Shown piece after piece: positions 25,510-63,970 of a DNA stretch of 64,000 nt. The stretch comes from Curvularia clavata (lineage: Eukaryota). The notes under the pieces were generated by a model, which was given only the letters and a program-made list of their open reading frames with translations, did no database searches and was not told where the DNA came from. Positions within the stretch are counted from its first letter, which is position 1. Each line of letters opens with the position of its first letter. The DNA lies in assembly GCA_023920165.1 (NCBI GenBank), contig CP089280.1:2666001-2730000 (forward strand), written 5' to 3'. A program made the position numbers and the translations under genes.

Positions 25510-25718
25510 TGTTAGACTGTTAGTGGCGTGAAGGTACAGCACGAGATAGATGAGAGAGAACTATGCTTTAACAGCCATGTATTCACGAGACGAATCGCTA
25601 TCGAGCACCTCTAGCGATCGTGGAGGCTTTATAGCCTTAGGTAAGCCCTAGCTGACTAACTAGGGTGAAGAAGGAGGGAATTGGACCAACATGTCCCAAT
25701 TTGGACCAGGTCCTGACA
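25510..25718. repeat. Solo LTR of Gypsy family B (young)
   Basis: 209 bp, nearly identical to 39902-40110. Perfect CCAAG target-site duplication. Confidence 0.97.
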
Positions 25719-25880
25719 CCAAGTTTTATTTTATCTTCAATATATAATAGAATGAAAGTTGGAATCCACCCTAACGATAAGTATCTTTGATCCGTTTCTA
25801 GACATAACTTGACCCTAAAGTATGACGGAAGCGATTATTAGTAATACCCAAAATTACGTACCCATACACTATAAATACGT

Positions 25881-26089
25881 TGTTAGGATGTTAGTAGGAT
25901 GATAGTAAAGCACGAGATAGATTAGAGGGCACTATACTTTAACATACATATATTTATACGACGAATCGCTGTTGAGCATCTCTAGCGATTACTAAAGCTT
26001 TATATTCCAAAGTGAGCCCGAGCTGACTAATCATGCTAGAGTAGGAGGGATTCAGGCTGGAATGGGCCACATTGGGCCAGGTTCTAACA
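25881..26089. repeat. Diverged solo LTR related to Gypsy family B
   Basis: 209 bp, TG..CA ends, shares cacgagataga and acgaatcgct blocks. TACGT TSD. Confidence 0.9.
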
Positions 26090-26493
26090 TACGTCACAGT
26101 TTTGCAGCACTTACAGCAGTTAGACGTTGGAATAATCAGACTAACTAATCTAAGACGTTGAATTGACCTGGATTGGTCGGCTATAAAGCTTAAAATCTCG
26201 ACAAAGATGAGACATTTCTTGACTGAATTCTTGTATTCCATTAGCTTATTAGATAGAGAAAAACGTAAGGATTCTAAATACATTCCTTTTACTATTCGAT
26301 ACTTAATACTTAATAGAGCTAAGGTTAGTTCTGATCTTAGTTCCTAATTTCTTAGTAGACTGGTACATGGGTCTCCACACCGGACATTCAAAGACGCGAA
26401 TCCCATCTGGATTCGCGCTGAAATAGATCTAGCATTAGAGTTTCATACTAAATTTAGCTATTTTGTACTCTCTAGTTTATATATTTTAACTTC

Positions 26494-26702
26494 TGTCAGG
26501 ATCTGGCCGAAATTGGGCCAATCTAGCCCAATCTTATCCAACTTAACCAACCTTAGTTAGTAATAGACTACCTAGGACTATAAAGTTCTAGTAGTCGCTA
26601 GAGAAGCTTGATAGCGATTCGTCTCGTGAATATACAGCGGCCAACGCATAGTTTTTTCCTATCTATCTCGTACTGTACCACCACCCAACGAATAGTCTAA
26701 CA
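26494..26702. repeat. RIP-diverged solo LTR of family B, inverted
   Basis: tgtcaggatctggcc...gatagcgattcgtctcgtgaata...gtctaaca, 209 bp. No clean TSD. Confidence 0.85.
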
Positions 26703-27363
26703 GCCCGATAACTGTTTCTAGACGATCGGTGGTAGTATTTGAAGCTGTTACGAACGAAGATACTGCTCTTGAAGGTAATACTGTTGAGTGCACCAAATTC
26801 TACAGAACATGGAGTAGGATCTGATCAACTTTGACGCGATAAATAAACGGAAACGTAACAATGTAGTTGTTGAATAGACTGTAGGATCTTACACGTCAAG
26901 GCACGTGATCTCAGCCACGTGATCAGAAGATGTATGGGATAAATAGAGCACTAAACTTGAGTAGCTACCAATTCAATGATCCGTCTCCCAGCTCGTTCCT
27001 ATGCTCGTTCTCCTGCAACAGTAGTTAACCCAAAAAACCAGCTGGTATCCATGAGACATCTTTGATCAAGTGTTGCATAGCAAAAAGGTACTCCCAAGTG
27101 GAATTCTCGTCTAGCAACATAGCGGTGTAATGCTTCTGGTGGCATTTCGCGGTTGTGGCAGCTTGCTTCAGCCAACTGTCATTTGCGAAGCTGCTGGGCG
27201 AATGTTGAAGCGTCCTGGGTCGCCGCAAGACAAGACGAGGGCCACAGCGTGCACATCCGCAACATTCCTTGTTGCGCCCGAAGCGATGCTCTTGATAAGG
27301 ACCTGTAACCGCCTTGATGTCCTTATTCTTGTTTGTAATTTTGAGTTCATATGCCTGAACTAC

Positions 27364-27572
27364 TGTCAGGATCTGGCCCAAATTGGATCAGTTTGGTCCT
27401 GTTCCCTCCTTCTCTACGCTAGTTAGTCAGCTAGGGCTTACTTAAGGATATAAAGCCTTCATAATCGCTAGAGGCACTCGATAGCGATTCGTCTCGTGAA
27501 TACATGGCTGTTAACGCATAACTCTCTCCCATCTATCTCGTGCTGTACCTTTATCCTACTAACAGTCTAACA
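27364..27572. repeat. Solo LTR of family B, inverted
   Basis: Reverse-complement match to 39902-40110, 209 bp. ACTAC TSD. Confidence 0.93.
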
Positions 27573-39232: not shown

Positions 39233-39901
39233 ACGTACCTCACGGGTTCGCGGTCTACACGGGTTCGCGGTCCACTTTTGCCAAGACCCTACTAAAATAC
39301 CTACTACCTATAAATGTTACAACAATAATAGTAGTTATAGCCTTCTAGTAAATGTTAAATATAGCTTACTCTTTAAGCTCTCAAATAGGACGCGAATCTC
39401 TCAGAATGACGTGCTGTAGCTCTTTATAATGTCTCTCGAACAACACTATATTAAAAACGCGACAGACGGGATTTATAAGCAGATTGCAGGCCTAAAACAA
39501 TAAATCTAACTAAGCTTAAGGAGGAGGTGATTATTAAGTATATTCTTAATCTTAGTTTACGTAGATTTCCCCCTAGGCTCGCAGATATAGCTAATATAGC
39601 CAATTTCTTACGCGCTAAGCGCAATTTAGGCTAGGTTAGCTAAAACTAGCCTAATATATTCGTTAAGCGCCGCCCTAAGCTTAAAGTAAAGTTTAATCGC
39701 AAGTATAACTATAAGAAAGCACTCTATAAGAATTTTAAAGCTATTTAAGACTAGTTTAGTCTAGTAGCTAATATAAAAGCTAAGTATAGTATCTAAGATA
39801 ACGATATATACAACTTTAATAAAATAGGCTTTATAATAGACTAGATTACCCCTAGAGCAGTTATTATAGCTTTAGAGAGACGTGGACGGCTAAAGACTAT
39901 C
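39233..39901 (+). mobile_element. RIP-mutated, truncated 5' copy of the pogo element at 16154-18015
   Basis: Same TIR after TA. Collinear with the reverse complement of ~17347-18015, with dense C>T/G>A changes. Ends abruptly at the Gypsy B LTR. Confidence 0.95.
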
Positions 39902-40703
39902 TGTTAGACTGTTAGTGGCGTGAAGGTACAGCACGAGATAGATGAGAGAGAACTATGCTTTAACAGCCATGTATTCACGAGACGAATCGCTATCGAGCAC
40001 CTCTAGCGATCGTGGAGGCTTTATAGCCTTAGGTAAGCCCTAGCTGACTAACTAGCGTGAAGAAGGAGGGAATTGGACCAACATGTCCCAATTTGGACCA
40101 GGTCCTGACAATACCTCCCTTCTTAGGGTGCAGCTGTCCCAGCTGCGCAACTTATCATGCTTGCCGCCCAGTTTGAGCGATTACTGGGTGATGCCGCCGT
40201 GTGGGTTGGAGGGTGTATTTTACTTGCTCACCGCCCCAGGGCTATGACGTCATAATAGCGGAGTTTTGCGCTGCTGCCTAGCCGACTGCCCCACTTTGGG
40301 CCAACCCGGCCCATCGGGGTACTCCTGGGCAGCGCCAAGAGTCACGTGACGCGCTAATTTAGTGCGGATCCAGGGATACAATAGCCAGTTTTTGACTAAG
40401 CCCAGTACACCCCACAGTCCACCAACCCCACTTTGGTAAGTAGACTCCCATTTTGTGGGTCTTCTCAGTTTGGGCCCGACACCTTCCACCCACGGTCTGT
40501 TTGCAACAGTTTGGCCCAATTTGGGCCAGTTTGCAGTCGACCTTGGTTTTGTTGCCTTTTTCTGAGGTTCTTCCCCTGGACTTGGAGTTTTCTGCTGACT
40601 GTTCTTTTTAGGCTGTTTCCTCCCATACGATCCATTTCGCGACAGATTCGACCGATTCGTCCCAAACACCCCCAAATTGGGGCCTTCAAGACCCACTTGA
40701 ACC

Positions 40704-41769
40704 ATGACGAACGCACTTGGATCCGTCAACCGCAGTACGGTGTCAAACCTGTTCGTACGCAAGGGCCAGAGGTCTTACTACGCTTGTGTGTGCTGTCTGA
40801 ACGCCTTCAGGGATAATGAGCCCGTTACTTTTGGCAGAGCGGGTTGCGTTATGTTGGACATCGACAATCCTGAGGTAGCTGAGGCTTGGTCTGGCTACAA
40901 GGTTGAACCGGAGTCTGGCGGTATGCCTAGGCAGGTGATGAAGTGTCTTCGCTGCTCTTACATCAACCGTGTCTGTTTTGCGGTAAGTTGCCCTGTTTTG
41001 CTCTGATTTGGTCCAATTTGGAGCTAAATGAGTGGTTAGGTGCCTCCTCCCGACAAGTTCTCCCCCGACTGGGTGAGACTTGGCCAGCTCATTGGGAAGG
41101 TTGAGGATGCCTTCCATGCCATTGACAAAGATATCCCCGAGGGTGCCAATGAGGCTGAAGTTCGTGCTGAGCGCAGGGAAATGTACGAGGTGGCCGTTAC
41201 TAGGCTTAGTATGTTCAGCAAGCCTATTGTTGAGTCACTCAAGAAGTAAGTGATCCAATTTTCCTAAATCTGGCCCAAATTGGACTAATTTGTGTAGGTT
41301 TGAGCCTCATGCTACTCATCTGTCTCTTTCCTCTGGTGCCATCGAGGAGGAAGATGATCCCCGCTCTGGTGTGAAGACTTCTGCCCTTGGCCGCTCCAAG
41401 AAGGATGAAGAGGTCAAGAGGAAGGCTCATGAGATCGAGGTGGAAACTTTGGTCGAGGCAAGGGTCAAGAAGTCCAAGTATGGCTCTGGTGGGCGCAAGA
41501 AGGAGGTTTGTGATCCTTTTCCCCCCTATTTACGCCAAATTGCCCCAATTTGGACTAACTTGGTTCTTTAGGTCAAGGTTGCCGAGGATGTCACTGATGA
41601 GCTTCAGAAGCGCATCAATGACATTGATGAAGAGATTTTGCAAAAAATGTCTGAGAAGGAGGGGGCCAAGGGTCAAGCCAAGAGGAAGATCACCAATGAC
41701 ATCAAGAACTTGGAAAAAGCCAAGGCAAGGCTTAACAAGGAGTACGAGGCCGCAGTTGCCGGTGATTAA
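40704..41769 (+). CDS. Antisense, 4-exon accessory gene inside Gypsy B (296 aa): expanded Zn2Cys6-like Cys pattern plus Lys/Glu-rich coiled coil
   Basis: Exons 40704-40982, 41040-41245, 41298-41505 and 41572-41769 join in frame (891 nt, no internal stop). GT..CTAA..AG introns. CX2C-X16-C-X32-CX2C-X6-C. Confidence 0.85.
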
Positions 41770-42057
41770 GGGTGGTTGGGTCTAGTTTTGTCCGTTTTGG
41801 CCCAAATTGGGTCAGTATGGGCTATGGTGGTTTTCTTCCCTTTCATATGAGATACCCAGGGCATTAGGATGGAGGTGATAATTGAAATTCTCTTTTCTTT
41901 ACTTTTCCATTCCTTGGTTTTTGTTGTGCAATGTCAGTTCAACATGGACCAATTTGGGCCAGGTTGCCCTAATCAGCTTATGCCGTTAAACACCTATAAA
42001 ACCCTTTGGGGAAAAAAGTAGGTGAAGGTACATGTGCTAATTTGGCTCCTATTGGCC

Positions 42058-45000
42058 CTATTTGGCCCGTTTTGGCCCGCGTCTGCGTCGAGGGACCTGA
42101 TTTGATTTGTTCCAGAACTCTTGAAGCGTTTTCTGGGTAACATTGGCGGCTGGCTCCCATGTGTTTTCAGAGTCGGGGTATCCAGTCCATTTCACTAAGT
42201 ATTCCCACTGATCGTCCTTGTTCTTCCTATGTCCCACTATTTTGTCCACGAGGTAGACATCGTCGCCTGTCTCGCCTAGTTCGTGTTGTGTTGGGACTTC
42301 AGGATGTGGTATATCACCTGGGGGGTGATACTGCTCTAGTAAGGATGCATGGAACACTGGGTGTACGTTTTTTAGGCCAGGCATATCTACTTTAAATGCT
42401 GATGGGCCGATTTGCTCAGTTATTGTGCCTGGGCCAACGTATTTCCAGTCGATCTTCTTCTTTGGTCGCAGGGATTTAATATGCTTATTAGATAGCAGTA
42501 CTTTATCCCCTACCTTAAAAGGAATGGGTTGTCTTTTCTTATCTGCGTGCCGTTTTTGGTACTCTTGCGCTTTTAGAATATTGTTCTTGCACTCTTGTTG
42601 TATTTCGATTATTCTTGAGGCAGTACTTGCCGCTAGGGGGTTTTCGCCCCCAGTTTGGGCGTCTTTGGGCCATTCTGCGCCTCTTGGGTGTATGCCGTTG
42701 CATGCTTGGAAGGGGGTGACCTTGGTAGTCGAATGTACACTGTCATTGTACGCGTATTCCCCTACTGAGATCCATAATGCCCAGTCGTCCTGCTCTAGGG
42801 AACAGTAGCAGCGGAGGTACTGTTCTAGAGTCTGATTTTGGCGTTCAGTCTGGCCATCTGTTTGTGGGTGGTATGCCGAAGTAAGTACACGTTTCGAGTT
42901 AAGGTAGTGAAGAAAGGTCTTCCAATGGGTGGAGTTCATTAAAGGGCCTCTATCTGATATGATTCGGCGTGGTACGCCATGGAGACGGATTACTTCGCGC
43001 AACCATGCCTGAGCTAGGTCTACTCCGTCCCAATTGGACCGTGCTGGCACGTAATGGGCCATTTTGGTCAGTCTGTCGACTATCACGAGGATTGCGTCGT
43101 ATACTACGCCTTGCAGTTTGCTTGGTGGCAATTCAGTTATAAAGTCCATTGTTACTTCCTCCCAGGCTCTATTGGGTGGTGGTAATGGTGCAAGGGGCCC
43201 GTATGGCAGGTGCCGTTTCGGGGTAGATTTTTGACAGATAAGGCATGATTTGCAGTAGTCTTCCACGTCTTTCCTCATGCCAGCCCACTTGTAGTGGCGC
43301 GTTAGTTTCTCTAATGTGCGTCTTGCGCCAAAATGTCCAGAAAGCGGGTCGTCGTGACCTTGTTTTAATGCTGCTGCTTTTTCCTGTGCCGTCTTGGGCA
43401 CGGTTGGGCCAGAGTGGCCCTGTTTGAGCCTTTGTGGACTTGGTTTGGCCACGTCGTCTTCTTCTGAGCTACATGAGTCCGAAGTGTATTCGTCCGTCTC
43501 TGAGTCGGCCTCTTGAGCCAATGCTGCATGCCTCTGGTCTTCATGTTGCTTCGCTGCTGTATTCTGCCGTCCTTGTGATCGTGTGGTGGTAGCTGCAGCT
43601 ATAGCAGTCCCTTCGGCATTGAATTTGAGCAGATGGCGTAGCGATGGCACATATGCGCTATTATTCTTCTGCTTTGGCTCTTGGGCGGCTTTTATGTAGT
43701 CGGGTCTGCGCGATGGGCCGTCGGCGGGGTTTGTTTTCCCAGGTTGGTGTACAATTGTGAAATCAAAACCTGATAGGGCTAAGTAAGACCGTACCTGGCG
43801 GTGATTCAGTGTTTTGGTTTCCATGAACCACTTCAGGTTTCGATGGTCAGTAATTAGATCAAAGTGTATCCCATCAAGATATCTTCGCCAGTGTTGGAGA
43901 CTAGCGACGATAGCTAGTAGCTCTTGGTCATGCGTGTCATAGTTGTACTCCGCGGCGATTAATTTGCGCGAGTAGAAGTCTACGGGTCTCCAGCAAGCCT
44001 CTTTGGGCACGTACTGGCTTAGGATGCCAGCAATCGCTCCTCCCGACGCATCGACCTGTACTCTAGTCTGATTGTCTGGATTAAAGTGGGTTAGGATAGG
44101 TACTGCCGTAAAGGAGTTTTTTAGCGTCTTAAACGCGCTCTTGGCGTTTTCGTCTAGAATTAGCAGTACGCTTTCCTCTTTTCGCTGAGCTTTGCCCCCT
44201 TTGGCGGCGTTCGGCTCCTTTTTCAGTAACTCAGTTAAAGGCAGTGCGATTCTGGAGAAGTTAGCAATGAATCGACGATAGTAGTTCATGAAGCCTAGAA
44301 ACACGCGGACATCGCGCACTGTACGCGGTTCTGGCCATTCTTGGGCCGTTTTGGCCCGATCTGGGTCGATACTTATACCCTCGGGGCTAACTGTGTAGCC
44401 AAGGAACTCAGTGTGTTGGGTGTGCCATTCACACTTCGAAGTCTTCAAATACAGCTTGGCTTCGCGCAATCTGTTTAAGACTTCGCGCACGTGTCTCTCG
44501 TGCTCCTCTTCTGTGTTGGAGAACACCAGGATATCGTCCAAATACACAATACAACTCACATCTACCAATCCTGCAAGGATATGGTGTATGTACGCCTGAA
44601 ATTGTGCAGGAGCGTTTGTAAGGCCAAAAGGCATCACAGTATACTCGAAATGGCCGTATCTGGTGCGGAAGGCTGTCTTCCACTCGTCTCCCTCCTTAAT
44701 CCTCACCCTATGATATGCTTCTCGGACGTCTAGCTTGGTATAGAATTTTGCCTCAGCCAATCTATCCAAGGACTCCGTAATCAAGGGTAAAGGGTGACGG
44801 TTTTTGAGCGTTATGTTGTTTAGACCTCTATAGTCCACACATAACCTCATCGTGCCGTCTTTCTTCTTCGCGAAGAGTATTGGTGCGCCTGCTGGCGACT
44901 TCGAATGTCTAATCCACCCTCTCGCGAGATACTCACGCAAGTAATCCCGGAGTAGCGCTAACTCGCTCTTCGAGAGCCCATATAGCGGCTGATGTGGTGG

Positions 45001-45790
45001 CGTGGTGCCTTCTTTCAAGGTTATCACCAAATCGTGCGGGCCATGCTCAGCAAGGCACTTGGCATCCTCTTCCGAGGCCAAATCCGCAAAGTCCTCGTAC
45101 TGTGGTGGCAACTGAGGCAACTTGGCTTGATCAGGGCCAACCTGGGCGTTCTTGGGCTTCTCCAACCCCTCCCAGTCCTCTTCCTCGTCGCTTGGGTCCC
45201 AACCCATCACAGTGGACACTTTGAGCGCGTAAACGTCCGTCGTGGGCGTTCGGAGTGTTTTCTCAAACTCTTCGGCGCTTTCTGTCGCGATTTTCTCATA
45301 TGAAGCCCTATCTACATATTTCACGCCCCTAAATAGCACTCGACGCGACCGGAGGCTTATTTTGGGCTTGTAGAAGTCGACCCAGGGCATACCTAAGCAT
45401 ACTGGGTAATGCTTCATTTCTGTCACCACAAAAGGTATATTCTGGACTTTAGTCCTCCCTCTTGTGTCTGTGACTTTCATGGTCACCTCTGTAGTGCCAT
45501 AAATCTCAAACTCCGCGCCGCTTAAGGCTTCTGCCACTAAGTTCGGTATAGGAGTTATTGTTAAATCGTGATCCTTGGCTTGGTGGATTGAGAGTAGATT
45601 TAGTTGAGACCCTCCATCTATCAGCGCTTCGAGTGGATCTTGGCCAATTTGCACCGTTATGGTCAATAGTGGGCTAGGTTTGCTGAACATTGCTTCGCGA
45701 AGTGTCTTCAAGTCCTCTTCTAGCTCTAGCCTTGCAATATGGGCGGAGAGTAGGGCTACTAGGTTCTCCGCCCCTTGCCTTTTTCCAGTT
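42058..45790 (-). CDS. pol: Gypsy pol (protease, RT, RNase H, integrase, chromodomain), probably via a -1 frameshift from gag
   Basis: ALIDGGS, YLDD, VDAS, HHCC zinc finger, MDFI..SDRG..TER, YLVKWTGYPDSENTWEP. The pol frame overlaps the gag end in the -1 frame at GGAAAAAG. Confidence 0.95.
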
Positions 45791-46991
45791 TGGGTTCCTC
45801 AGGTGCCGCTTGGCTTTGTTTGTGCTTACTACAGTTCCTGCTGATGTGTCCGGGTTCCCCGCAGTTGTAACAGACAATTTTGCCCTCTGCGTCGCGTCCT
45901 CGAACCTTGTTTGCCGCGTATGAACCTTTTGTATCCGCAGGGTTCCGTCTTTGTTTTTTCAGGGTTTTTTCGTACCCTCTTGTGTTCTTTGGTGGTGTGC
46001 CGCTCCTGGCTTGCTTGTTCTGCGTTGTTCTAGCGTTGCTAGGCTTCTCTCTTTTCGTTCTGTCCCAGATAAGTCGCGCTCGCGCGTTTAGGTCTGAGAT
46101 TGTGCTTCTTTGACCTGGTTCGAGTAAAAGCAACTCTTTCTGTATTGTCATTGTCAAAGCGCCCATAAAGTCCCTCACTCTCTGCTCTTCCGAGTAGGAA
46201 TTGCCCAATTCGGACCAAAGTGTGTCCAATTTGGCCAACAGGTCGTTTGGGTCCTGAGACCAGTCCTGTCTGATGTGTTTGAGAGCTCGGTGGGCTTCAA
46301 GCTTCCGCTGTTCTGGTGGTCCCAGTGAATCCACCATTACAGTCTTCAGGTCTAGCCACGTGGGTGTCCAATTCGTGTCTTTTCTACAGTAGTCGTGATA
46401 ATAGGCGTCCCATGTGGAGCGTAGGGGGTCAGTGATATACCTAAGCCCAAAATCGATCTTGACTGCCTCTGTTTGGAACGTTTTAGGGCTTCCCCTAAAC
46501 GTTGCCTCACATTCGCGTTCCCAGCGATTGTACTCGGCACGATCGCGGCTTGTGAACTGTGTTGGTTTTTCTGGTCGTGGAGCTCCCACGTTTGGTTCTA
46601 GTTGTATCCCCACCGCACGGTGTGGTTCATATAGGTCCTCTGTCAGTGCTGTCGTGTCACCTTGGTCGAACCGACGCTTGATTTCCTGGAGACGTTTCAG
46701 TTCTTGCTCGTCAAGCGCTCGTTGCCTCCAAGCGCGCAGTTCGTCTAGCTGTTGAGCAATGGTGGTCTGAGGTGGTTCAAGTCGAGCTGGGCTGCCCTGA
46801 ATTGGGCTTCTCTGTGCCAGTTCGGCCTGATCTGCCTCCGTGACGGCAGGCTCGGATAGTTCACTTGAAGATGGCTGGGTTGAGTCTCTAGTTAGAGTGG
46901 GCTGTGAGTCCCCTACTACCGTGTTTCGAGTTGACCTTGGGCGGCTCCGAGTTTGGCGACTACCTGGGTTCGGCATGGCTCTCTCTGACAT
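45759..46991 (-). CDS. gag: Gypsy gag
   Basis: 410-aa ORF after the 5' LTR, with zinc knuckle CYNCGEPGHISRNC. Confidence 0.93.
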   Translation of the reverse strand: MSERAMPNPGSRQTRSRPRSTRNTVVGDSQPTLTRDSTQPSSSELSEPAVTEADQAELAQRSPIQGSPARLEPPQTTIAQQLDELRAWRQRALDEQELKRLQEIKRRFDQGDTTALTEDLYEPHRAVGIQLEPNVGAPRPEKPTQFTSRDRAEYNRWERECEATFRGSPKTFQTEAVKIDFGLRYITDPLRSTWDAYYHDYCRKDTNWTPTWLDLKTVMVDSLGPPEQRKLEAHRALKHIRQDWSQDPNDLLAKLDTLWSELGNSYSEEQRVRDFMGALTMTIQKELLLLEPGQRSTISDLNARARLIWDRTKREKPSNARTTQNKQARSGTPPKNTRGYEKTLKKQRRNPADTKGSYAANKVRGRDAEGKIVCYNCGEPGHISRNCSKHKQSQAAPEEPKLEKGKGRRT

Positions 46992-47232
46992 CTCGTAGGT
47001 GTACTTGAGGAGAGCGATTCGAATGTTAGACTGTTAGTGGCGTGAAGGTACAGCACGAGATAGATGAGAGAGAACTATGCTTTAACAGCCATGTATTCAC
47101 GAGACGAATCGCTATCGAGCACCTCTAGCGATCGTGGAGGCTTTATAGCCTTAGGTAAGCCCTAGCTGACTAACTAGCGTGAAGAAGGAGGGAATTGGAC
47201 CGGCATGTCCCAATTTGGACCAGGTCCTGACA

Positions 47233-47315
47233 TAAGCTAGTCAGCTAATCTACAGTATCTGGGTGCGTACTTCTATACCCAGAATCAACTTAGTCTATAG
47301 TCGATCTGTCAAGAC
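47233..47315 (+). repeat. Fragment of a Copia LTR (same family as 49273), the target of the hAT insertion; it resumes at 63985-64000
   Basis: Reverse complement of the LTR end (taagctagtcagc...gtcaagac|tataatcg), with one mismatch. Confidence 0.93.
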
Positions 47316-47344: not shown

Positions 47345-47575
47345 GCTCGGGTTGGGGTAGGGCTTGGGGCTATAGAGACTCGGGCTGGGGTAGGGCTGGG
47401 GCTGCTAAGAGTCGGGCTGGGGTAGGGCTGGGGCTGCTAAGAGTCGGGCTGGGGTAGGGCTAGGGCTGCTAAGAGTCGGGCTGGGGCAGGGCTGGGTTGC
47501 TTGGCACTTGGGCTGGGGTAGGGCTGGGTTACTAAAGAGTTAGGTAGGGGTAGGGCTGGGTATAGCCTGCCCAGC
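47345..47575 (+). repeat. hAT left subterminal G-rich tandem repeats (~32-bp unit gggctggggtagggctggggctgctaagagtc)
   Basis: Visible tandem array; related repeats occur at 63710-63970. Confidence 0.9.
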
Positions 47576-49634: not shown

Positions 49635-51428
49635 CTAGGAAGCTGTAATTTGGGATATATCTACTAGATTTGCTCCAAGTAGAAAGTCTCGAGTCTTGTC
49701 GGCGCTTGTAGCCTTAGTGAGACTGTCGGCTAGTAGACAGCTAGTGTTTTGATATACTAGCTGGATCTGTTTGGTCTCTACCTTCTCACGGATAAAGTAG
49801 TATTGGATATCGATGTGTTTTGTCCTAGCGTGATAGGTAGGATTTTTGGTGAGTTGGATTGCACTTTGGCTGTCTGAGTAGACAGTAGTAGCTGTCTTGT
49901 CTATGTCTGGCAGTATTGGATATAGAGCTTTAATCTCTTTGATAAACTGGGTGAGATATAAGCTCTGTTTAACTGCTTCTCGGTAGGCCATGAATTCAGC
50001 TTCTGCGCTTGATAGTGCTACTGTCGGCTGTAGTTTTGACAGCCAAGAAATCGCGCAGTTGCTCTTGTTTGACTGGAGTAAAAATATGTATCCAGTGGTA
50101 GATCTTCTACTGTCAAAGTCACCCCCCCAATCTGCATCCGTAGATCCAATCAGTTTAATCAGATCTAAGTTATTTGGTGCAGATTGACTGCTTTTGATGC
50201 TGTTTTGGTTATCAGTACTGAGCTGATAGAGTAGTCCTAGCTGTCTTGACTGAGCTAGATATCCCCATAGGTAGTCTAGACTGCTGAAATGCTCGGTGCT
50301 CGGATTGGCCATGAATCTGGATAGAAGATTGACTGCGTAGGTAATATCCGGCCGAGTAAAAATGGATAGATAGATGAGAGAGCCAATTTGCTGCTGGTAC
50401 ATATTGGTGGCGTTTGGAGTAGCCGTTTGGCTGTTTCTGTTGAGCTTGATATTCTGTTGCAGTGGAGTCTGTCTTGGCTTAATATCTTGCTTATTGAATC
50501 TAGCAAGTAGCCTTTGTAGATAGTTTTCTTGGGTAATATAGATCGCTCGTCTAGATCTAATTACTTGGACTCCAAGAAACTCTGAGACGTCGCCTAGATC
50601 TTTGATCTCAAGCTTTGAGATAGCTGTTAGGTCTTTGAATAGCTTTTGAATACTTTGCTCTTGTTCTCCAAAAATAAGCAAGTCGTCTACGTGAGTAGCT
50701 ATAACAAGCTTCTGCTCGACATTGATATAAGTGGCAGTGTCAATAAACAGAGATTTGAAGCCTAGTTGTCCGAGTAGGCTTGCTAGTAGTTTCTGCCACT
50801 GTCTACTGGCTTGTTTTAGCCCGTATAGAGCCTTGTTAAGCAAGCAGACGTGCTGTGGATAGTGCTGATCTTGAAATCCTTCTGGCTGCTCGACGTATAT
50901 AGTCGTGTCGATTAAAGCATTTGGGAAAGCTTGCTTGACATCCCAGCTTTTTATATGCCAGTTTTGAGCTGCTGAAATGGCTAGTAGTAGCCGGATTAGA
51001 TCAGGCCGAGTAGTATTGGCAAATGTCTCGTAGTAGTTGACTCCAAGCTCTTGTTGAAAGCCTTTCGCTACCCAACGTGCTTTGAATATAAAATCGCCAT
51101 TTTGCTGGTATTTTTTGTTAAGTACCCAGCGGCCTTTGAGAACTGGATATTCGGACGGTCTTGGTACAAGCTTCCAAGTGTCGTTCTTTTGCAGCTGGTC
51201 TAGCTCGTTTTGCATAGCTAATAGATAGTGTTGACTGTCTTGGTGCTGTAGCACTTGAGCGTAGCTTTTTGGATCAGTGATATCCTTTGAAGTAAATAAG
51301 ACTTCTTCTAGGATAATGTCCTCTGCTGCTATTTCTGGTGGAGCTTTTTGATTAGTGGATAGAGCTAATTCTGCTGGCTTGGCTTTCTTTTTGATCAAAA
51401 CAATCGGATTTCTTCCAACTACTCTCAT
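49635..51428 (-). CDS. Copia RT-RNase H (copy 1)
   Basis: KARWVAKGF, WDVKQAF, LYGLKQAS, HVDD, TDADW, SSAEAE, KHIDIQY. Confidence 0.93.
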   Translation of the reverse strand: MRVVGRNPIVLIKKKAKPAELALSTNQKAPPEIAAEDIILEEVLFTSKDITDPKSYAQVLQHQDSQHYLLAMQNELDQLQKNDTWKLVPRPSEYPVLKGRWVLNKKYQQNGDFIFKARWVAKGFQQELGVNYYETFANTTRPDLIRLLLAISAAQNWHIKSWDVKQAFPNALIDTTIYVEQPEGFQDQHYPQHVCLLNKALYGLKQASRQWQKLLASLLGQLGFKSLFIDTATYINVEQKLVIATHVDDLLIFGEQEQSIQKLFKDLTAISKLEIKDLGDVSEFLGVQVIRSRRAIYITQENYLQRLLARFNKQDIKPRQTPLQQNIKLNRNSQTATPNATNMYQQQIGSLIYLSIFTRPDITYAVNLLSRFMANPSTEHFSSLDYLWGYLAQSRQLGLLYQLSTDNQNSIKSSQSAPNNLDLIKLIGSTDADWGGDFDSRRSTTGYIFLLQSNKSNCAISWLSKLQPTVALSSAEAEFMAYREAVKQSLYLTQFIKEIKALYPILPDIDKTATTVYSDSQSAIQLTKNPTYHARTKHIDIQYYFIREKVETKQIQLVYQNTSCLLADSLTKATSADKTRDFLLGANLVDISQITAS

Positions 51429-51456
51429 GGAGTTGGCTGGTGGATTTGACTGGCTA

Positions 51457-51540
51457 GTATTTGGCTCAGTATTTGGCTCAGTATTTGGCTCAGTATTTGG
51501 CTCAGTATTTGGCTCAGCATTTGGCTCAGTATTTGGCTCT
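51457..51540. repeat. 12-bp tandem repeat (gtatttggctca x7) encoding an EPNT linker; also at 56396-56479
   Basis: Directly visible. Confidence 0.9.
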
Positions 51541-51569
51541 TCGTCAAGCTGCAGTTCTTCATCAGGAGC

Positions 51570-53830
51570 TTAATCATTGAACACTCCTTCTAGTATTTGG
51601 ACGTCTCTTGCAGTAGTAACCTTGTTAGTTCTAATATCGATTAGACGATATAGATTTTTACTAATATATCCAACAAGGTAGTACTGCTGGACACGAGAAT
51701 CTAGTTTGCCAAGAAACTCTTTTGGCTCTTTCTTGTATGCTAGAGATCCCCAGATTCTAACATTGCTGACGTCTGGTTTATATCCATATTTGGCTTCAAA
51801 TGGCGTCTTAAAGCCAATAGAGCTGTGCGGTGTTCTATTGTATAGATACACTGCCGCTAGTAGAGCTTCTGCCCACAGCTTATTAGGCATTTTGGCTTCA
51901 AATAGCAGAGCTCTTATCTTGTCAAATAACGTTCGGTTGATCCGCTCGGCTCCGCCTTTGCCTTCTGGATTGAATGGGGAGTTGAAAAAATCGGAGTTTA
52001 AATCCCTTTCTAGTAGCTAGCTTTTGCAGCTCTAGCGTGTCCAACTCATTGTCTGATTGGATAGCTTTGATCTGCTTTGAGTCTTGGACTTCTGCTTTCT
52101 TAACAAAAGCTTTGACTGGCTTGACTAGCTCTGATCTAGACGTGAGTAAGTCCACTTCTAGATATTTGGTGTAGTAGTCTAGAAAGGTAATATAATACCG
52201 ATAGCCCTTATTCGTCTTTGGCTTAATCGGCCCCCCTAGGTCGCAGTAGATCAAATCACCAAACTGGTGGACTGGTGTAGATATTGGATCTCTGCTTATT
52301 TTGCTAGCAAATTTGCTTCTCAAGCAAATCTCGCAGTTGCTAAATCCACTGCTGGTTTTGGTATTTGATTTGACGCCTTTGGTATTCTCACTTAGCTTAT
52401 TTAAGCTAGTTTTACCAATATGGCCAAAACGTCGGTGTAGAAGAGACGTTTGATCGTCTGGCTTAGACTGATCTGTTTGATTCGGTTGGACGGATTTGGC
52501 TGTCAGCTCTGTATTGTATGTCTCTGTATAGACTTGGCTAGTTTGGATATTGCTAACTGCAGTAAAAGTAGCAATATTTCTAGCGTATTGCCCCTTCGCT
52601 AGTATTTTGCTAGATAGCCTAATTAGGCTGCTAGTCTTTGAAAACTCGAATTCAGCTCCTTTTTGAACTGCTTGGTAGAGACTGAGTAGATTGACTTTGA
52701 AGTCCGGCACTAGTAAGACTTCTTTGAGTACTACTGTCTCGCCCGTACTCGTAAATTTAATTGGCACTTCGCCTTTGGCTGTTGCTTGTAGCAACGCAGT
52801 AGAGTTGCCCCATTTAATATACGTATTACTAACGCTGGTAAGGCTTCTAAAAAGCTGTCGGTCAGAGCAAATATGGGAGCTGGCGGCGCTGTCTAATATC
52901 CACTCAATCGACTTGGAAGACTCAGTGGATAGAGCAGCTTTGATATCGGCGATATTTGGATCGACTGAGACTACTGTAGATAGAGCTGTCTCAGGCTTAT
53001 AATATGTCCGACTGGGGCGTTTGCTGGGGTCTTTCTGCCAGCATTGGTCGACTAAATGTCCATTTCTCTTGCAGTGAGAGCAGTATTTTGGACTTTTGGT
53101 GGATTTTTGAGTAGCCAAAGTCATTTCGACGTCTTTTGACTGTGGAGCTTGGTTGGAGCTGCTAATTGGGCTCCTTTGGTATGGTCTGTAGCTCTTTTGG
53201 TAAGAGCTATTTGAGTTACTGCCGCTGCTGCTTCTAATCGATTTCTGGCGTCTTGATTCGTCCATAATTTGGTTGTATAAGTTCTCAAGATCAATCTCTT
53301 TGTTAGATCTAAAATCTTGAGTAATAGCTGTAACCAAATAGTCAAAGTCTGAGCTTAGATTATTGAGAATCAAAGCAGCAATGAATCGGTGCGGTAGTGC
53401 CAGATTTCGGCTCTCTAGACTAAGGACTAGTCTGTTGATTTTTTTGGAGATATATTTCGACGTTGTTTTGGCACTGCTGCACGGTCGTATTGATAAGATC
53501 TTTGCAAATTAAGAAGTCAGAGCTAAAGCCTTTTGGGCTATATAGCTTCTTTAGGTGATTCCATAGACTATATGGAGTTTTCATGTCTTTTGACTGTAGT
53601 AGAGGCCCATCGTCTAGACTGAGTCGTAGAGTAGACAGAGCTTTGATTTCTGAGCTTTTTAGCTTCTGATATCTCTCAGAGCCTTTACTTTGTTCAAGCT
53701 CTTGTGGGTCGACTGTTATAATCTCGTAGCAGTCTTGCTGTATAAGCACTGCTTCGATCCGTAGTGCCCACATGTCATAGTTAGAGCTGCCTTTGAGCTT
53801 TGGCACTCTAAATATGCTACTGTCAGCCAT
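51570..53830 (-). pseudogene. Copia gag-protease-integrase (copy 1), two frameshifts relative to copy 2
   Basis: Matches 56509-58764 except for indels at ~51975-51990 and ~53440 (homopolymers). Confidence 0.85.
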
Positions 53831-54573
53831 TTTGTGCTGCTAGTCTGTCTAGAAATATAGACTAGATAGCTGTTTGTAGTCTAGCGCAGTAAATAAGCAG
53901 TTACTGTTCTTACTATGAAGAACTCTGGCTGCTAGTCGATCGAGTTGATCTGTCTGCAACTAGCTACAAGAAGCTTCGGCTAACCCCTAACCAGAGTATT
54001 TAGCTGCGTTTGCGGCTCAGAGACTCCTAAACTGATAGGGTTTTTGCTTCAGTAGAGTTTCTCAGCTTTTTAGCCGTGGTTTACTCTTAACCCTTAGTAA
54101 CCCTAGCTTTTACTAAGAGACTAGCTATATTTATACTAGCTCTTACTTTAGTCTTATGCTAAGACTTGCTAGAATCTTCGATCGATAGACACGTAATCCG
54201 GGCTCATAACCTGTTGAAGTAATAGGTGGCTGCTAGTACTACTAGTAGTAGACTTAGACAGCCTGATCGAGAGACTCTAGATAGACGAGAGATTGCTAGG
54301 GGAGAGAGTTAATAGATACAATTGATTTTGTATAAACTGCTCTGGTTTTTATCTACTAGCTATTCTACTACTATATATATTGGCTGGAGTAGATTCTAGA
54401 AGAATCTATCTAGTAGTAGCTTGCGTAATCTTTGGCGTCATAGACAGATGTCTATAGATCGATTATAGTCTTGACAGATCGACTATAGACTAAGTTGATT
54501 CTGGGTATAGGAGTACGCACCCAGATACTGTAGATTAGCTGACTAGCTTAGATCTACAACACGCCCCCTTAAG

Positions 54574-56367
54574 CTAGGAAGCTGTAATTTGGGATATATC
54601 TACTAGATTTGCTCCAAGTAGAAAGTCTCGAGTCTTGTCGGCGCTTGTAGCCTTAGTGAGACTGTCGGCTAGTAGACAGCTAGTGTTTTGATATACTAGC
54701 TGGATCTGTTTGGTCTCTACCTTCTCACGGATAAAGTAGTATTGGATATCGATGTGTTTTGTCCTAGCGTGATAGGTAGGATTTTTGGTGAGTTGGATTG
54801 CACTTTGGCTGTCTGAGTAGACAGTAGTAGCTGTCTTGTCTATGTCTGGCAGTATTGGATATAGAGCTTTAATCTCTTTGATAAACTGGGTGAGATATAA
54901 GCTCTGTTTAACTGCTTCTCGGTAGGCCATGAATTCAGCTTCTGCGCTTGATAGTGCTACTGTCGGCTGTAGTTTTGACAGCCAAGAAATCGCGCAGTTG
55001 CTCTTGTTTGACTGGAGTAAAAATATGTATCCAGTGGTAGATCTTCTACTGTCAAAGTCACCCCCCCAATCTGCATCCGTAGATCCAATCAGTTTAATCA
55101 GATCTAAGTTATTTGGTGCAGATTGACTGCTTTTGATGCTGTTTTGGTTATCAGTACTGAGCTGATAGAGTAGTCCTAGCTGTCTTGACTGAGCTAGATA
55201 TCCCCATAGGTAGTCTAGACTGCTGAAATGCTCGGTGCTCGGATTGGCCATGAATCTGGATAGAAGATTGACTGCGTAGGTAATATCCGGCCGAGTAAAA
55301 ATGGATAGATAGATGAGAGAGCCAATTTGCTGCTGGTACATATTGGTGGCGTTTGGAGTAGCCGTTTGGCTGTTTCTGTTGAGCTTGATATTCTGTTGCA
55401 GTGGAGTCTGTCTTGGCTTAATATCTTGCTTATTGAATCTAGCAAGTAGCCTTTGTAGATAGTTTTCTTGGGTAATATAGATCGCTCGTCTAGATCTAAT
55501 TACTTGGACTCCAAGAAACTCTGAGACGTCGCCTAGATCTTTGATCTCAAGCTTTGAGATAGCTGTTAGGTCTTTGAATAGCTTTTGAATACTTTGCTCT
55601 TGTTCTCCAAAAATAAGCAAGTCGTCTACGTGAGTAGCTATAACAAGCTTCTGCTCGACATTGATATAAGTGGCAGTGTCAATAAACAGAGATTTGAAGC
55701 CTAGTTGTCCGAGTAGGCTTGCTAGTAGTTTCTGCCACTGTCTACTGGCTTGTTTTAGCCCGTATAGAGCCTTGTTAAGCAAGCAGACGTGCTGTGGATA
55801 GTGCTGATCTTGAAATCCTTCTGGCTGCTCGACGTATATAGTCGTGTCGATTAAAGCATTTGGGAAAGCTTGCTTGACATCCCAGCTTTTTATATGCCAG
55901 TTTTGAGCTGCTGAAATGGCTAGTAGTAGCCGGATTAGATCAGGCCGAGTAGTATTGGCAAATGTCTCGTAGTAGTTGACTCCAAGCTCTTGTTGAAAGC
56001 CTTTCGCTACCCAACGTGCTTTGAATATAAAATCGCCATTTTGCTGGTATTTTTTGTTAAGTACCCAGCGGCCTTTGAGAACTGGATATTCGGACGGTCT
56101 TGGTACAAGCTTCCAAGTGTCGTTCTTTTGCAGCTGGTCTAGCTCGTTTTGCATAGCTAATAGATAGTGTTGACTGTCTTGGTGCTGTAGCACTTGAGCG
56201 TAGCTTTTTGGATCAGTGATATCCTTTGAAGTAAATAAGACTTCTTCTAGGATAATGTCCTCTGCTGCTATTTCTGGTGGAGCTTTTTGATTAGTGGATA
56301 GAGCTAATTCTGCTGGCTTGGCTTTCTTTTTGATCAAAACAATCGGATTTCTTCCAACTACTCTCAT
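54574..56367 (-). CDS. Copia RT-RNase H (copy 2)
   Basis: Same protein as copy 1. Confidence 0.93.
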   Translation of the reverse strand: MRVVGRNPIVLIKKKAKPAELALSTNQKAPPEIAAEDIILEEVLFTSKDITDPKSYAQVLQHQDSQHYLLAMQNELDQLQKNDTWKLVPRPSEYPVLKGRWVLNKKYQQNGDFIFKARWVAKGFQQELGVNYYETFANTTRPDLIRLLLAISAAQNWHIKSWDVKQAFPNALIDTTIYVEQPEGFQDQHYPQHVCLLNKALYGLKQASRQWQKLLASLLGQLGFKSLFIDTATYINVEQKLVIATHVDDLLIFGEQEQSIQKLFKDLTAISKLEIKDLGDVSEFLGVQVIRSRRAIYITQENYLQRLLARFNKQDIKPRQTPLQQNIKLNRNSQTATPNATNMYQQQIGSLIYLSIFTRPDITYAVNLLSRFMANPSTEHFSSLDYLWGYLAQSRQLGLLYQLSTDNQNSIKSSQSAPNNLDLIKLIGSTDADWGGDFDSRRSTTGYIFLLQSNKSNCAISWLSKLQPTVALSSAEAEFMAYREAVKQSLYLTQFIKEIKALYPILPDIDKTATTVYSDSQSAIQLTKNPTYHARTKHIDIQYYFIREKVETKQIQLVYQNTSCLLADSLTKATSADKTRDFLLGANLVDISQITAS

Positions 56368-56508
56368 GGAGTTGGCTGGTGGATTTGACTGGCTAGTATT
56401 TGGCTCAGTATTTGGCTCAGTATTTGGCTCAGTATTTGGCTCAGTATTTGGCTCAGCATTTGGCTCAGTATTTGGCTCTTCGTCAAGCTGCAGTTCTTCA
56501 TCAGGAGC

Positions 56509-58764
56509 TTAATCATTGAACACTCCTTCTAGTATTTGGACGTCTCTTGCAGTAGTAACCTTGTTAGTTCTAATATCGATTAGACGATATAGATTTTTAC
56601 TAATATATCCAACAAGGTAGTACTGCTGGACACGAGAATCTAGTTTGCCAAGAAACTCTTTTGGCTCTTTCTTGTATGCTAGAGATCCCCAGATTCTAAC
56701 ATTGCTGACGTCTGGTTTATATCCATATTTGGCTTCAAATGGCGTCTTAAAGCCAATAGAGCTGTGCGGTGTTCTATTGTATAGATACACTGCCGCTAGT
56801 AGAGCTTCTGCCCACAGCTTATTAGGCATTTTGGCTTCAAATAGCAGAGCTCTTATCTTGTCAAATAACGTTCGGTTGATCCGCTCGGCTCCGCCTTTGC
56901 CTTCTGGATTGAATGGGGGAGTAAATCGGAGTTTAAATCCCTTTCTAGTAGCTAGCTTTTGCAGCTCTAGCGTGTCCAACTCATTGTCTGATTGGATAGC
57001 TTTGATCTGCTTTGAGTCTTGGACTTCTGCTTTCTTAACAAAAGCTTTGACTGGCTTGACTAGCTCTGATCTAGACGTGAGTAAGTCCACTTCTAGATAT
57101 TTGGTGTAGTAGTCTAGAAAGGTAATATAATACCGATAGCCCTTATTCGTCTTTGGCTTAATCGGCCCCCCTAGGTCGCAGTAGATCAAATCACCAAACT
57201 GGTGGACTGGTGTAGATATTGGATCTCTGCTTATTTTGCTAGCAAATTTGCTTCTCAAGCAAATCTCGCAGTTGCTAAATCCACTGCTGGTTTTGGTATT
57301 TGATTTGACGCCTTTGGTATTCTCACTTAGCTTATTTAAGCTAGTTTTACCAATATGGCCAAAACGTCGGTGTAGAAGAGACGTTTGATCGTCTGGCTTA
57401 GACTGATCTGTTTGATTCGGTTGGACGGATTTGGCTGTCAGCTCTGTATTGTATGTCTCTGTATAGACTTGGCTAGTTTGGATATTGCTAACTGCAGTAA
57501 AAGTAGCAATATTTCTAGCGTATTGCCCCTTCGCTAGTATTTTGCTAGATAGCCTAATTAGGCTGCTAGTCTTTGAAAACTCGAATTCAGCTCCTTTTTG
57601 AACTGCTTGGTAGAGACTGAGTAGATTGACTTTGAAGTCCGGCACTAGTAAGACTTCTTTGAGTACTACTGTCTCGCCCGTACTCGTAAATTTAATTGGC
57701 ACTTCGCCTTTGGCTGTTGCTTGTAGCAACGCAGTAGAGTTGCCCCATTTAATATACGTATTACTAACGCTGGTAAGGCTTCTAAAAAGCTGTCGGTCAG
57801 AGCAAATATGGGAGCTGGCGGCGCTGTCTAATATCCACTCAATCGACTTGGAAGACTCAGTGGATAGAGCAGCTTTGATATCGGCGATATTTGGATCGAC
57901 TGAGACTACTGTAGATAGAGCTGTCTCAGGCTTATAATATGTCCGACTGGGGCGTTTGCTGGGGTCTTTCTGCCAGCATTGGTCGACTAAATGTCCATTT
58001 CTCTTGCAGTGAGAGCAGTATTTTGGACTTTTGGTGGATTTTTGAGTAGCCAAAGTCATTTCGACGTCTTTTGACTGTGGAGCTTGGTTGGAGCTGCTAA
58101 TTGGGCTCCTTTGGTATGGTCTGTAGCTCTTTTGGTAAGAGCTATTTGAGTTACTGCCGCTGCTGCTTCTAATCGATTTCTGGCGTCTTGATTCGTCCAT
58201 AATTTGGTTGTATAAGTTCTCAAGATCAATCTCTTTGTTAGATCTAAAATCTTGAGTAATAGCTGTAACCAAATAGTCAAAGTCTGAGCTTAGATTATTG
58301 AGAATCAAAGCAGCAATGAATCGGTGCGGTAGTGCCAGATTTCGGCTCTCTAGACTAAGGACTAGTCTGTTGATTTTTTGGAGATATATTTCGACGTTGT
58401 TTTGGCACTGCTGCACGGTCGTATTGATAAGATCTTTGCAAATTAAGAAGTCAGAGCTAAAGCCTTTTGGGCTATATAGCTTCTTTAGGTGATTCCATAG
58501 ACTATATGGAGTTTTCATGTCTTTTGACTGTAGTAGAGGCCCATCGTCTAGACTGAGTCGTAGAGTAGACAGAGCTTTGATTTCTGAGCTTTTTAGCTTC
58601 TGATATCTCTCAGAGCCTTTACTTTGTTCAAGCTCTTGTGGGTCGACTGTTATAATCTCGTAGCAGTCTTGCTGTATAAGCACTGCTTCGATCCGTAGTG
58701 CCCACATGTCATAGTTAGAGCTGCCTTTGAGCTTTGGCACTCTAAATATGCTACTGTCAGCCAT
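56509..58764 (-). CDS. Copia gag-protease-integrase (copy 2)
   Basis: CSHCKRNGHLVDQC knuckle, WILDSAAS protease, HRRFGH..CEIC, YCDL..QSDN..AER integrase. Confidence 0.93.
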   Translation of the reverse strand: MADSSIFRVPKLKGSSNYDMWALRIEAVLIQQDCYEIITVDPQELEQSKGSERYQKLKSSEIKALSTLRLSLDDGPLLQSKDMKTPYSLWNHLKKLYSPKGFSSDFLICKDLINTTVQQCQNNVEIYLQKINRLVLSLESRNLALPHRFIAALILNNLSSDFDYLVTAITQDFRSNKEIDLENLYNQIMDESRRQKSIRSSSGSNSNSSYQKSYRPYQRSPISSSNQAPQSKDVEMTLATQKSTKSPKYCSHCKRNGHLVDQCWQKDPSKRPSRTYYKPETALSTVVSVDPNIADIKAALSTESSKSIEWILDSAASSHICSDRQLFRSLTSVSNTYIKWGNSTALLQATAKGEVPIKFTSTGETVVLKEVLLVPDFKVNLLSLYQAVQKGAEFEFSKTSSLIRLSSKILAKGQYARNIATFTAVSNIQTSQVYTETYNTELTAKSVQPNQTDQSKPDDQTSLLHRRFGHIGKTSLNKLSENTKGVKSNTKTSSGFSNCEICLRSKFASKISRDPISTPVHQFGDLIYCDLGGPIKPKTNKGYRYYITFLDYYTKYLEVDLLTSRSELVKPVKAFVKKAEVQDSKQIKAIQSDNELDTLELQKLATRKGFKLRFTPPFNPEGKGGAERINRTLFDKIRALLFEAKMPNKLWAEALLAAVYLYNRTPHSSIGFKTPFEAKYGYKPDVSNVRIWGSLAYKKEPKEFLGKLDSRVQQYYLVGYISKNLYRLIDIRTNKVTTARDVQILEGVFND

Positions 58765-63499: not shown

Positions 63500-63709
63500 G
63501 GGCTTTCATAATAGAGTATTAAGTACTAATAGCTTTTATAATTAAAAGATAGCCATAATTAAAAACTAGCTATATACTAGAAGTCAAATAAAAGTTTTAT
63601 AAGTTCTTAATTTTTAATTTACTACTATAATAATTATGCATAATAAGTCTTTAATATATACAGAGTATATATATATCTAATAACTAAGACCCAGCATAAC
63701 CTAGTACTA

Positions 63710-63970
63710 AGCAACCCAGCCCTACCCCAGCCCGCTTATTAAGCAACCCAGCCCTACCCCTACCCAACTCTTGACTAACCCAGCCCTGCCCCTACCCAAC
63801 TTAAATGCCAAGAGTTGGGTAGAAGCAGGGCTAGGTTGCCTAATAAGCGGGCTGGGGTAGGGCTAGGTTAGCCAAGAGTTGGGTAGGGGCAGGGCTGGGT
63901 TGCTTAGTCATCTAACCCAGCCCTACCCCTACCCAACTCTTAGCAGCCCTGCCCCAGCCCTGCCCCAGCC
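63710..63970. repeat. hAT right subterminal repeats (cccagccctacccc) in both orientations
   Basis: Reverse complements of the left array, with an internal inverted block at ~63810-63905. Confidence 0.9.

Follow-up and report, generated by a model that had tools for sequence, protein, structure and literature searches.

Both motif arrays within transposable elements (TEs) and antisense genes of Gypsy elements have known precedents. In Arabidopsis, the VANC anti-silencing proteins bind target motifs of VANDAL21 and VANDAL6, and the sections of the source that describe these motifs present them as short (9 bp in VANDAL), specific to one TE family, often in tandem and accumulating in the non-coding parts of their own element, where they occupy accessory-gene introns and intergenic and terminal regions and vary between related TEs (PMC5735166). 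In fungi, the Boty-like (BcGypsy1) chromoviruses of Botrytis, which are chromodomain-bearing Ty3/Gypsy elements, carry an antisense extra gene, brtn, between pol and the 3′ long terminal repeat (LTR), as attributed to Zhao et al. 2011, and the Boty passages of the two articles concerned mention no motif array (PMC8365987, PMC7264820). Antisense extra genes have long been known from fungal and plant Gypsy elements, and the passage that treats them assigns them no function (PMC7264820). Here, we describe a 64,000-nucleotide (nt) stretch of Curvularia clavata contig CP089280.1 (positions 2,666,001 to 2,730,000 of the forward strand; hereafter the window), in which 39902..47232 holds, on the minus strand, one intact Ty3/Gypsy chromovirus of 7331 bp. 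The ~2 kb between its pol stop and its 3′ LTR house a plus-strand gene of predicted spliced structure, antisense to the element and expected to encode a protein of 296 amino acids (aa), and short arrays of an exactly phased, family-specific motif are concentrated in the LTRs, in the introns of this gene and in the linkers.

The likeness to VANDAL lies in a short, family-specific motif that accumulates, often in tandem, in the non-coding parts of its own element, accessory-gene introns included, and in an accessory protein beyond the transposition machinery; motif arrays also occur in a metagenome relative, L001. The difference is that VANDAL is a plant DNA transposon whose system acts on DNA methylation, whereas the present element is a fungal LTR retrotransposon. 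With Boty, the locus shares the Ty3/Gypsy class, the chromodomain and the location of an antisense extra gene between pol and the 3′ LTR. In the literature searched, which was of limited coverage, we came upon no report of palindromic decamers arrayed in phase, specific to one element family and linked to an antisense gene in a fungal chromovirus. Repeated short protein-binding motifs that control transcription or chromatin within an LTR retrotransposon are also familiar from the Su(Hw) site cluster in the 5′ untranslated region (UTR) of Drosophila gypsy and from the repeated U3 boxes of Tnt1 and Tto1, but those are single clusters served by host factors, while the arrays described here are element-wide, phased at 10 bp, palindromic and present in the introns of the antisense gene.

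All of the runs to which an earlier note on this DNA had drawn attention (in the LTR, at ~40510, in the three introns, at ~41786 and ~42040, and in gag/pol) are present, and both their enrichment and their periodicity exceed composition-matched shuffles. With expected counts derived from dinucleotide shuffling of the element (7331 bp, 300 replicates), CCAAWTTGG is present 10 times where 0.1 are expected (z 32), TTGGNCC 19 times (3.4 expected, z 8.4), WTTGGNCC 17 times (1.7 expected) and TTGGNCCAA five times (0.2 expected). The motif is also family-specific, as all 12 CCAAWTTGG sites and all eight pairs of GGNCC at a lag of 10 bp in the 64-kb window fall in the element or in related solo LTRs, and no such motif is found in the host genes of the window, in its pair of Copia copies or in its Tc5/pogo-like transposon. 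The periodicity, described in the earlier note as roughly helical, is real and is not rough at all: TTG, TTGG and GGNCC each return after exactly 10, 20 and 30 bp. Between 40111 and 42090, TTG pairs at these three lags number 18, 13 and 8 against ~1.8 expected (z 12.7, 7.7 and 4.6), five GGNCC pairs stand at lag 10 where 0.1 are expected, and Tandem Repeats Finder independently reports 42040-42078 as a repeat of period 10 with 3.9 copies. Each site is therefore a short array of 2-5 degenerate decamer units, TTGGNCCAAW, in which the half-sites TTGG and CCAA make overlapping palindromes (CCAAWTTGG, TTGGNCCAA). When CCAAWTTGG sites are oriented and stacked they yield TGG-N-CCAA-W-TTGG-N-CCA, a 17-bp palindrome, so that the orientation of any one such site is meaningless.

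The arrays avoid constrained coding sequence. WTTGGNCC or its complement GGNCCAAW is found 17 times in 1506 nt of non-coding DNA (LTRs, non-coding DNA of the accessory region, introns) and six times in the 5825 nt that make up gag, pol and the antisense exons, giving an array density ~11-fold higher in non-coding DNA and bearing out the concentration that had been claimed for LTRs, introns and linkers. The 891 nt of antisense exons contain none, and all three introns of the gene contain CCAAWTTGG. In the LTR, the array occupies sense positions ~8-40 of U3, roughly 50-80 nt upstream of the TATAAAG. The runs in pol and gag were compared with 500 synonymous-codon shuffles in which the protein sequence was held fixed, and here the earlier statement that similar runs lie in both genes stands for pol, where they are weaker but real, and shrinks in gag to a single outstanding site at 46226. 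In pol, GGNCCAA occurs seven times against 2.45 expected (a count reached by 2 of the 500 shuffles), CCAA at lag 10 four times against 0.72 (3 of 500) and GGNCC at lag 10 three times against 0.35 (0 of 500); amino-acid repeats cannot be the source of this lag-10 excess, since 10 nt is not a whole number of codons. By arithmetic on the Pfam coordinates, the weaker pol arrays fall between protein domains, at the boundaries of protease and reverse transcriptase, reverse transcriptase and RNase H, RNase H and integrase, and integrase core and SH3, and in the C-terminal tail. Five successive arrays (at 41013, 41275, 41545, 41802 and 42060) are spaced by 262, 270, 257 and 258 bp, a near-evenness that follows from the similar lengths of exons 2-4 (206, 208 and 198 nt, respectively).

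The pattern is conserved in a distant relative. The comparison uses the one metagenome locus, L001 (2189 bp), that a two-sequence alignment search returned, the same search of IMG/VR returning no related locus. L001 encodes an exon 1 protein 46% identical to that of the present element, and agrees with it in the LTR end, in the complement of the polypurine tract and in the layout of the gene. Within its element, TTG pairs at lags of 10, 20 and 30 bp number 11, 8 and 8 against ~1 expected, and TTGGNCC occurs six times against 1.0 expected, every time inside the element and never in the 652-bp flank; the 6-mers ATTTGG, GGGCCA and ACTTGG are enriched in both elements. Arrays stand at four matching places, namely upstream of the gene in the stretch flanked by TGACGTMA and CAYGTGAC, both of them conserved, shortly before the ATG, in intron 1, where the TTG phases align, and in intron 2, whose position is conserved because exon 3 of L001 begins at the homologous residue (E 5e-6). 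Intron 1 aligns without gaps at 38 of 57 positions (67%), while exon 1 is identical at 156 of 279 nt and at 44 of its 93 third codon positions (47%); the non-coding region upstream aligns at only ~45%, and a BLASTP comparison of exon 2 with its L001 counterpart gave no alignment. Closer to the element, the window contains four solo LTRs within 2 kb (25510-27572), derived from the element's own family and two diverged sub-families, and all four, including those with 73-88% identity, keep the TTGG/CCAA unit at the same U3 end. A scan of IMG/VR for TTGGNCCAAWTTGGNCCA gave 20 single-site matches, which we judge to be chance because none is accompanied by element homology or arrays.

The antisense gene is modelled as four exons separated by three GT..AG introns, which are 57, 52 and 66 nt long. 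Its predicted protein has an N-terminal domain with six invariant cysteines and a coiled-coil-like C-terminus. An exhaustive HMMER search with exon 1 gave seven matches among 1.84 billion representative proteins, of which six are real, comprising five open reading frames (ORFs) of exon-1 size, all terminating at the C.AV border seen here, and one full-length form of 309 aa; the seventh, P0004, is a repeat artefact and was discarded. Invariant residues are N15, C28, C31, G44, G47, C48, C81, R83, C84, C91 and A93, placing the six cysteines (28, 31, 48, 81, 84 and 91) in a CX2CX16C...CX2CX6C spacing. The Zn2Cys6 cluster of the Gal4 type is spaced CX2CX6CX5-12CX2CX6-8C. The label "Zn-cluster-like" given to the protein in the earlier note is not borne out, as the cysteine spacing differs and Pfam, its Zn_clus family included, gives no match either to exon 1 (E <= 0.1) or to the six relatives (E <= 1). 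PDB searched by sequence yields no match for the accessory protein, Foldseek finds no structural match at E <= 0.001 with what is a poor fold model (predicted local distance difference test 63), and the Atlas neighbours of the protein score 0.76 or below. Upstream of the gene lie a perfect TGACGTCA (40245-40252), a CACGTGAC (40343-40350) and a GGTAAGT (40435-40441), and L001 has the same three motifs in the same order (1033, 1210 and 1317); the GGTAAGT, as a donor at 40435, may open an intron in the 5′ UTR. Reads of four sequencing runs gave only near-identical contigs, with no spliced joint and no transcript ends, and one contig from a run guessed to be RNA, which may be DNA, crosses intron 3 unspliced.

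We favour, at about an even chance, the reading that the arrays are selected DNA-binding sites of a sequence-specific dimeric or oligomeric protein that governs the element's transcription or its chromatin state, and we divide this weight equally between the element's own 296-aa protein and a host factor. The earlier suggestion that the runs form a functional cis element thus finds support, in that runs so enriched, exactly phased, base-specific in their flanks and recurrent in L001 are probably not products of chance or composition. With exactly one unit to each helical turn, the half-sites all lie on one face of the DNA, and palindromic pairs on one face are the layout that would be expected for cooperative binding of a dimer or oligomer. 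The sites are spread over all the regions in which the element can accommodate them: U3 upstream of the TATA box, the promoter, 5′ UTR, all introns and 3′ UTR of the antisense gene, and the inter-domain linkers of pol. Acting jointly, the scattered sites would be a platform from which transcription or chromatin state is set for the element as a whole. We infer both that a protein binds the arrays and what this binding does. The binder may be the cysteine-rich, coiled-coil protein of the element itself, in a VANC-like self-recognition, or a host factor. Taken by itself, and by analogy with VANC, the version in which the antisense protein binds the arrays as an oligomer and keeps its own family transcriptionally open, or shields it from heterochromatin or RNA interference (RNAi), seems to us unlikely. 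Several points weigh against the binding-site reading. The accessory protein matches no known DNA-binding family, and the arrays are T-rich on the plus strand, which a strictly palindromic protein site does not need. Conservation rests on the single relative L001, and the identity of intron 1 between the two is in part splice-site consensus. The LTR of L001 has no motif array and exact CCAAWTTGG occurs in L001 just once, so that the conserved thing is the phased TTGG/GGNCC pattern and not one fixed site. Among the LTRs of the window, the array is not clearly more conserved than its surroundings (13 of 20 array columns invariant, as against 116 of 209 overall).

Phased A/T and G/C blocks might, as a purely structural signal and with no sequence-specific binder, curve or bend the DNA, set the rotation of nucleosomes or keep chromatin open; (A/T)3NN(G/C)3NN is the classical nucleosome-favouring pattern, and the present unit is likewise W5/S5-like (AATTT GGGCC), with A/T and G/C blocks alternating at exactly 10 bp and with nine units forming a 90-bp array in L001. 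However, the bases of the A/T part are not interchangeable: of 16 non-coding GGNCC cases, 10 have TT upstream, none has AA upstream and seven have AA downstream, compared with TT upstream in 6 of 88 GGNCC elsewhere in the window, and in L001 the upstream flank is TT in 6 of 12 and AA in 0 of 12. Such base-specific flanks (TTGG...CCAA) argue against a purely structural A/T-G/C signal, most arrays are just 20-50 bp, far under 147 bp, and the ~260-bp spacing of the five arrays, which is only ~220 bp between introns 1 and 2 of L001, fits no fungal nucleosome repeat that we know of. The alternative of nucleosome positioning raised in the earlier note, although the 10-bp alternation on which it was built is present, is thereby weakened and appears to us unlikely. 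We hold it equally unlikely that the arrays are neutral, the by-product of a decamer prone to slippage that spreads and decays in unconstrained sequence, much as plant LTR retrotransposons have hypervariable tandem repeats between pol and the 3′ LTR. The arrays are indeed tandem, degenerate, variable in length and confined to weakly constrained places, and their unit number differs between the element and L001, but the same decamer stands at at least 15 separate sites and in a relative of 46% protein identity, and intron 1 is more conserved than synonymous sites. Nor is segmental duplication of a ~260-bp module the cause, a candidate that was rejected: the segments between arrays have no residual similarity beyond the motif (15 of 15 pairs at z < 3), so the spread of the arrays does not stem from recent duplication of such a module.

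The same palindromes could act at the level of RNA, as hairpins or intermolecular pairs in the 3′ UTR of the genomic RNA or in the antisense pre-mRNA, with packaging, dimerisation, export or splicing control as possible roles. Only the arrays of the 5′ U3 lie outside the transcribed part of the element, folding of the palindromic arrays surpasses that of shuffled sequence (z -1.4 to -4.7), and predicted folding places CCAAWTTGG-type sequence in a hairpin in the three introns and in intron 1 of L001. Against this, the direct array at 42035-42085 folds no better than shuffles (z -0.4 and -0.8), as does the direct array at 41935-41975 on the plus strand (z -0.3), so hairpins are not a common property of the arrays; the N positions beside the core are not consistently complementary, and one array lies in U3 upstream of the TATA box. 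We regard an RNA-level function as the remoter for this, and place at the same low level the possibility that the sites are host CCAAT boxes, bound by a complex of the HAP/NF-Y type and serving as promoter elements for the LTR and the antisense gene. CCAAT is enriched in the non-coding DNA of the element, CCAATTTGG holds CCAAT in either orientation, the LTR sites lie at a distance of ~50-80 nt upstream of TATAAAG, and all four LTR variants retain at least one CCAAT or ATTGG. The pentamer does not emerge as a conserved core, however, since CCAAT/ATTGG is not enriched in L001 (6 against 5.2 expected), and CCAAT boxes leave the 10-bp phasing, the conserved GGNCC and the sites in introns, 3′ UTR and pol linkers unexplained.

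The locus pairs a family-specific, conserved and exactly phased motif with an antisense gene, the motif standing in the introns and promoter of that gene and in the LTR of the element. This pairing yields a first concrete and cheaply testable hypothesis for such genes, namely that the protein binds the arrays and alters silencing. Were it true, TE-encoded, sequence-specific anti-silencing would reach from plant DNA transposons to fungal retrotransposons, and self-recognition would make the system the equivalent, in a fungal retrotransposon, of VANC in plants, its motif and protein diverging together from one relative to the next. Should the binder be a host factor, the arrays would mark recognition of the element family by the host. 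The arrays and the other features of the element are listed in Table 1.

Table 1. Coordinates, within the window, of the chromovirus, its genes, its motif arrays and the related solo LTRs.
Feature	Position	Strand	Remarks
3′ LTR	39902..40110	-	209 bp; TATAAAG at about sense position 86; motif array at extreme 5′ end of U3
LTR array AATTGGACCAACATGTCCCAATTTGGACCAGGTCCT	40071..40106		repeated at 47193-47228 and in solo LTR at 25679-25714
Array upstream of antisense gene	40287..40312		between TGACGTCA (40245-40252) and CACGTGAC (40343-40350)
Single unit CAGTTTGGGCCCG	40466..40478
Four-unit array GTTTGCAACA GTTTGGCCCA ATTTGGGCCA GTTTGCAG	40497..40536
Palindromic unit ACCCCCAAATTGGGG	40668..40682		~30 nt upstream of ATG; matching L001 unit at aligned position
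Antisense accessory gene	40704..41769	+	296 aa; exons 40704-40982, 41040-41245, 41298-41505, 41572-41769
Five-unit array filling intron 1	40976..41027
Intron 2 array	41266..41293
Intron 3 array	41531..41563
Array directly past antisense-gene stop codon	41783..41816
Array between the two convergent stop codons	41940..41967
Direct four-unit array ATTTGGCTCC TATTGGCCCT ATTTGGCCCG TTTTGGCCCG	42040..42081		overlaps last 7 codons and stop of pol
pol	42058..45711	-	Pfam: protease, RVT_1, RNase H, integrase (rve), SH3, Chromo
Weaker pol arrays	42651-42678, 43390-43440, 44332-44368, 45117-45154
gag	45759..46991	-	zf-CCHC knuckle (Pfam); one array 46196-46240
gag array	46196-46240
5′ LTR	47024..47232	-	2 mismatches to 3′ LTR
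Solo LTR cluster	25510..27572		25510-25718 (99.5% identical), 25881-26089 (73%), 26494-26702 (73%), 27361-27572 (88%)

The two LTRs of the element differ at two adjacent positions only (40079-40080 and 47201-47202), both of them within the motif array, where one reads CCAAC and the other CCGGC; the 3′ LTR shares the array variant GGACCAAC with the solo LTR at 25510, and the 5′ LTR has GGACCGGC. Despite LTRs that are 99% identical, the candidate target-site duplication has no match (CTATC at 39897-39901, TAAGC at 47233-47237), and the left flank of the element is AT-rich and has the look of sequence mutated by repeat-induced point mutation. Beside the 5′ LTR, positions 47010-47023 (sense TTCGAATCGCTCTCC) are complementary over 9 nt to AGCGATTCG, which lies at sense positions ~120-128 of the LTR (39983-39991 and 47105-47113), ~30 nt downstream of TATAAAG. 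We take this complementarity to resemble self-priming of the Tf1 type in place of a tRNA primer-binding site.

Several other repeats neighbour the element. Directly adjoining it, at 47347-47560, is a G-rich tandem repeat of 32 bp in 6.7 copies, and the end of the window (63708-63903) has comparable repeats of 32 bp, in part oppositely oriented. The Tc5/pogo-like transposon of the window (16162-18007), a DDE element with an ORF of 562 aa, is bounded by inverted doublets of the 17-bp repeat CACGGGTTCGCGGTCCA, of which a further doublet lies ~630 bp to the left of the Gypsy element (39241-39274). The two Ty1/Copia copies are arranged in tandem at 49635-58764, 4939 bp apart and both without TTGG/GGNCC arrays, and each contains between its ORFs a 12-bp repeat, TGGCTCAGTATT, in 7.5 units (51451-51539 and 56390-56478).

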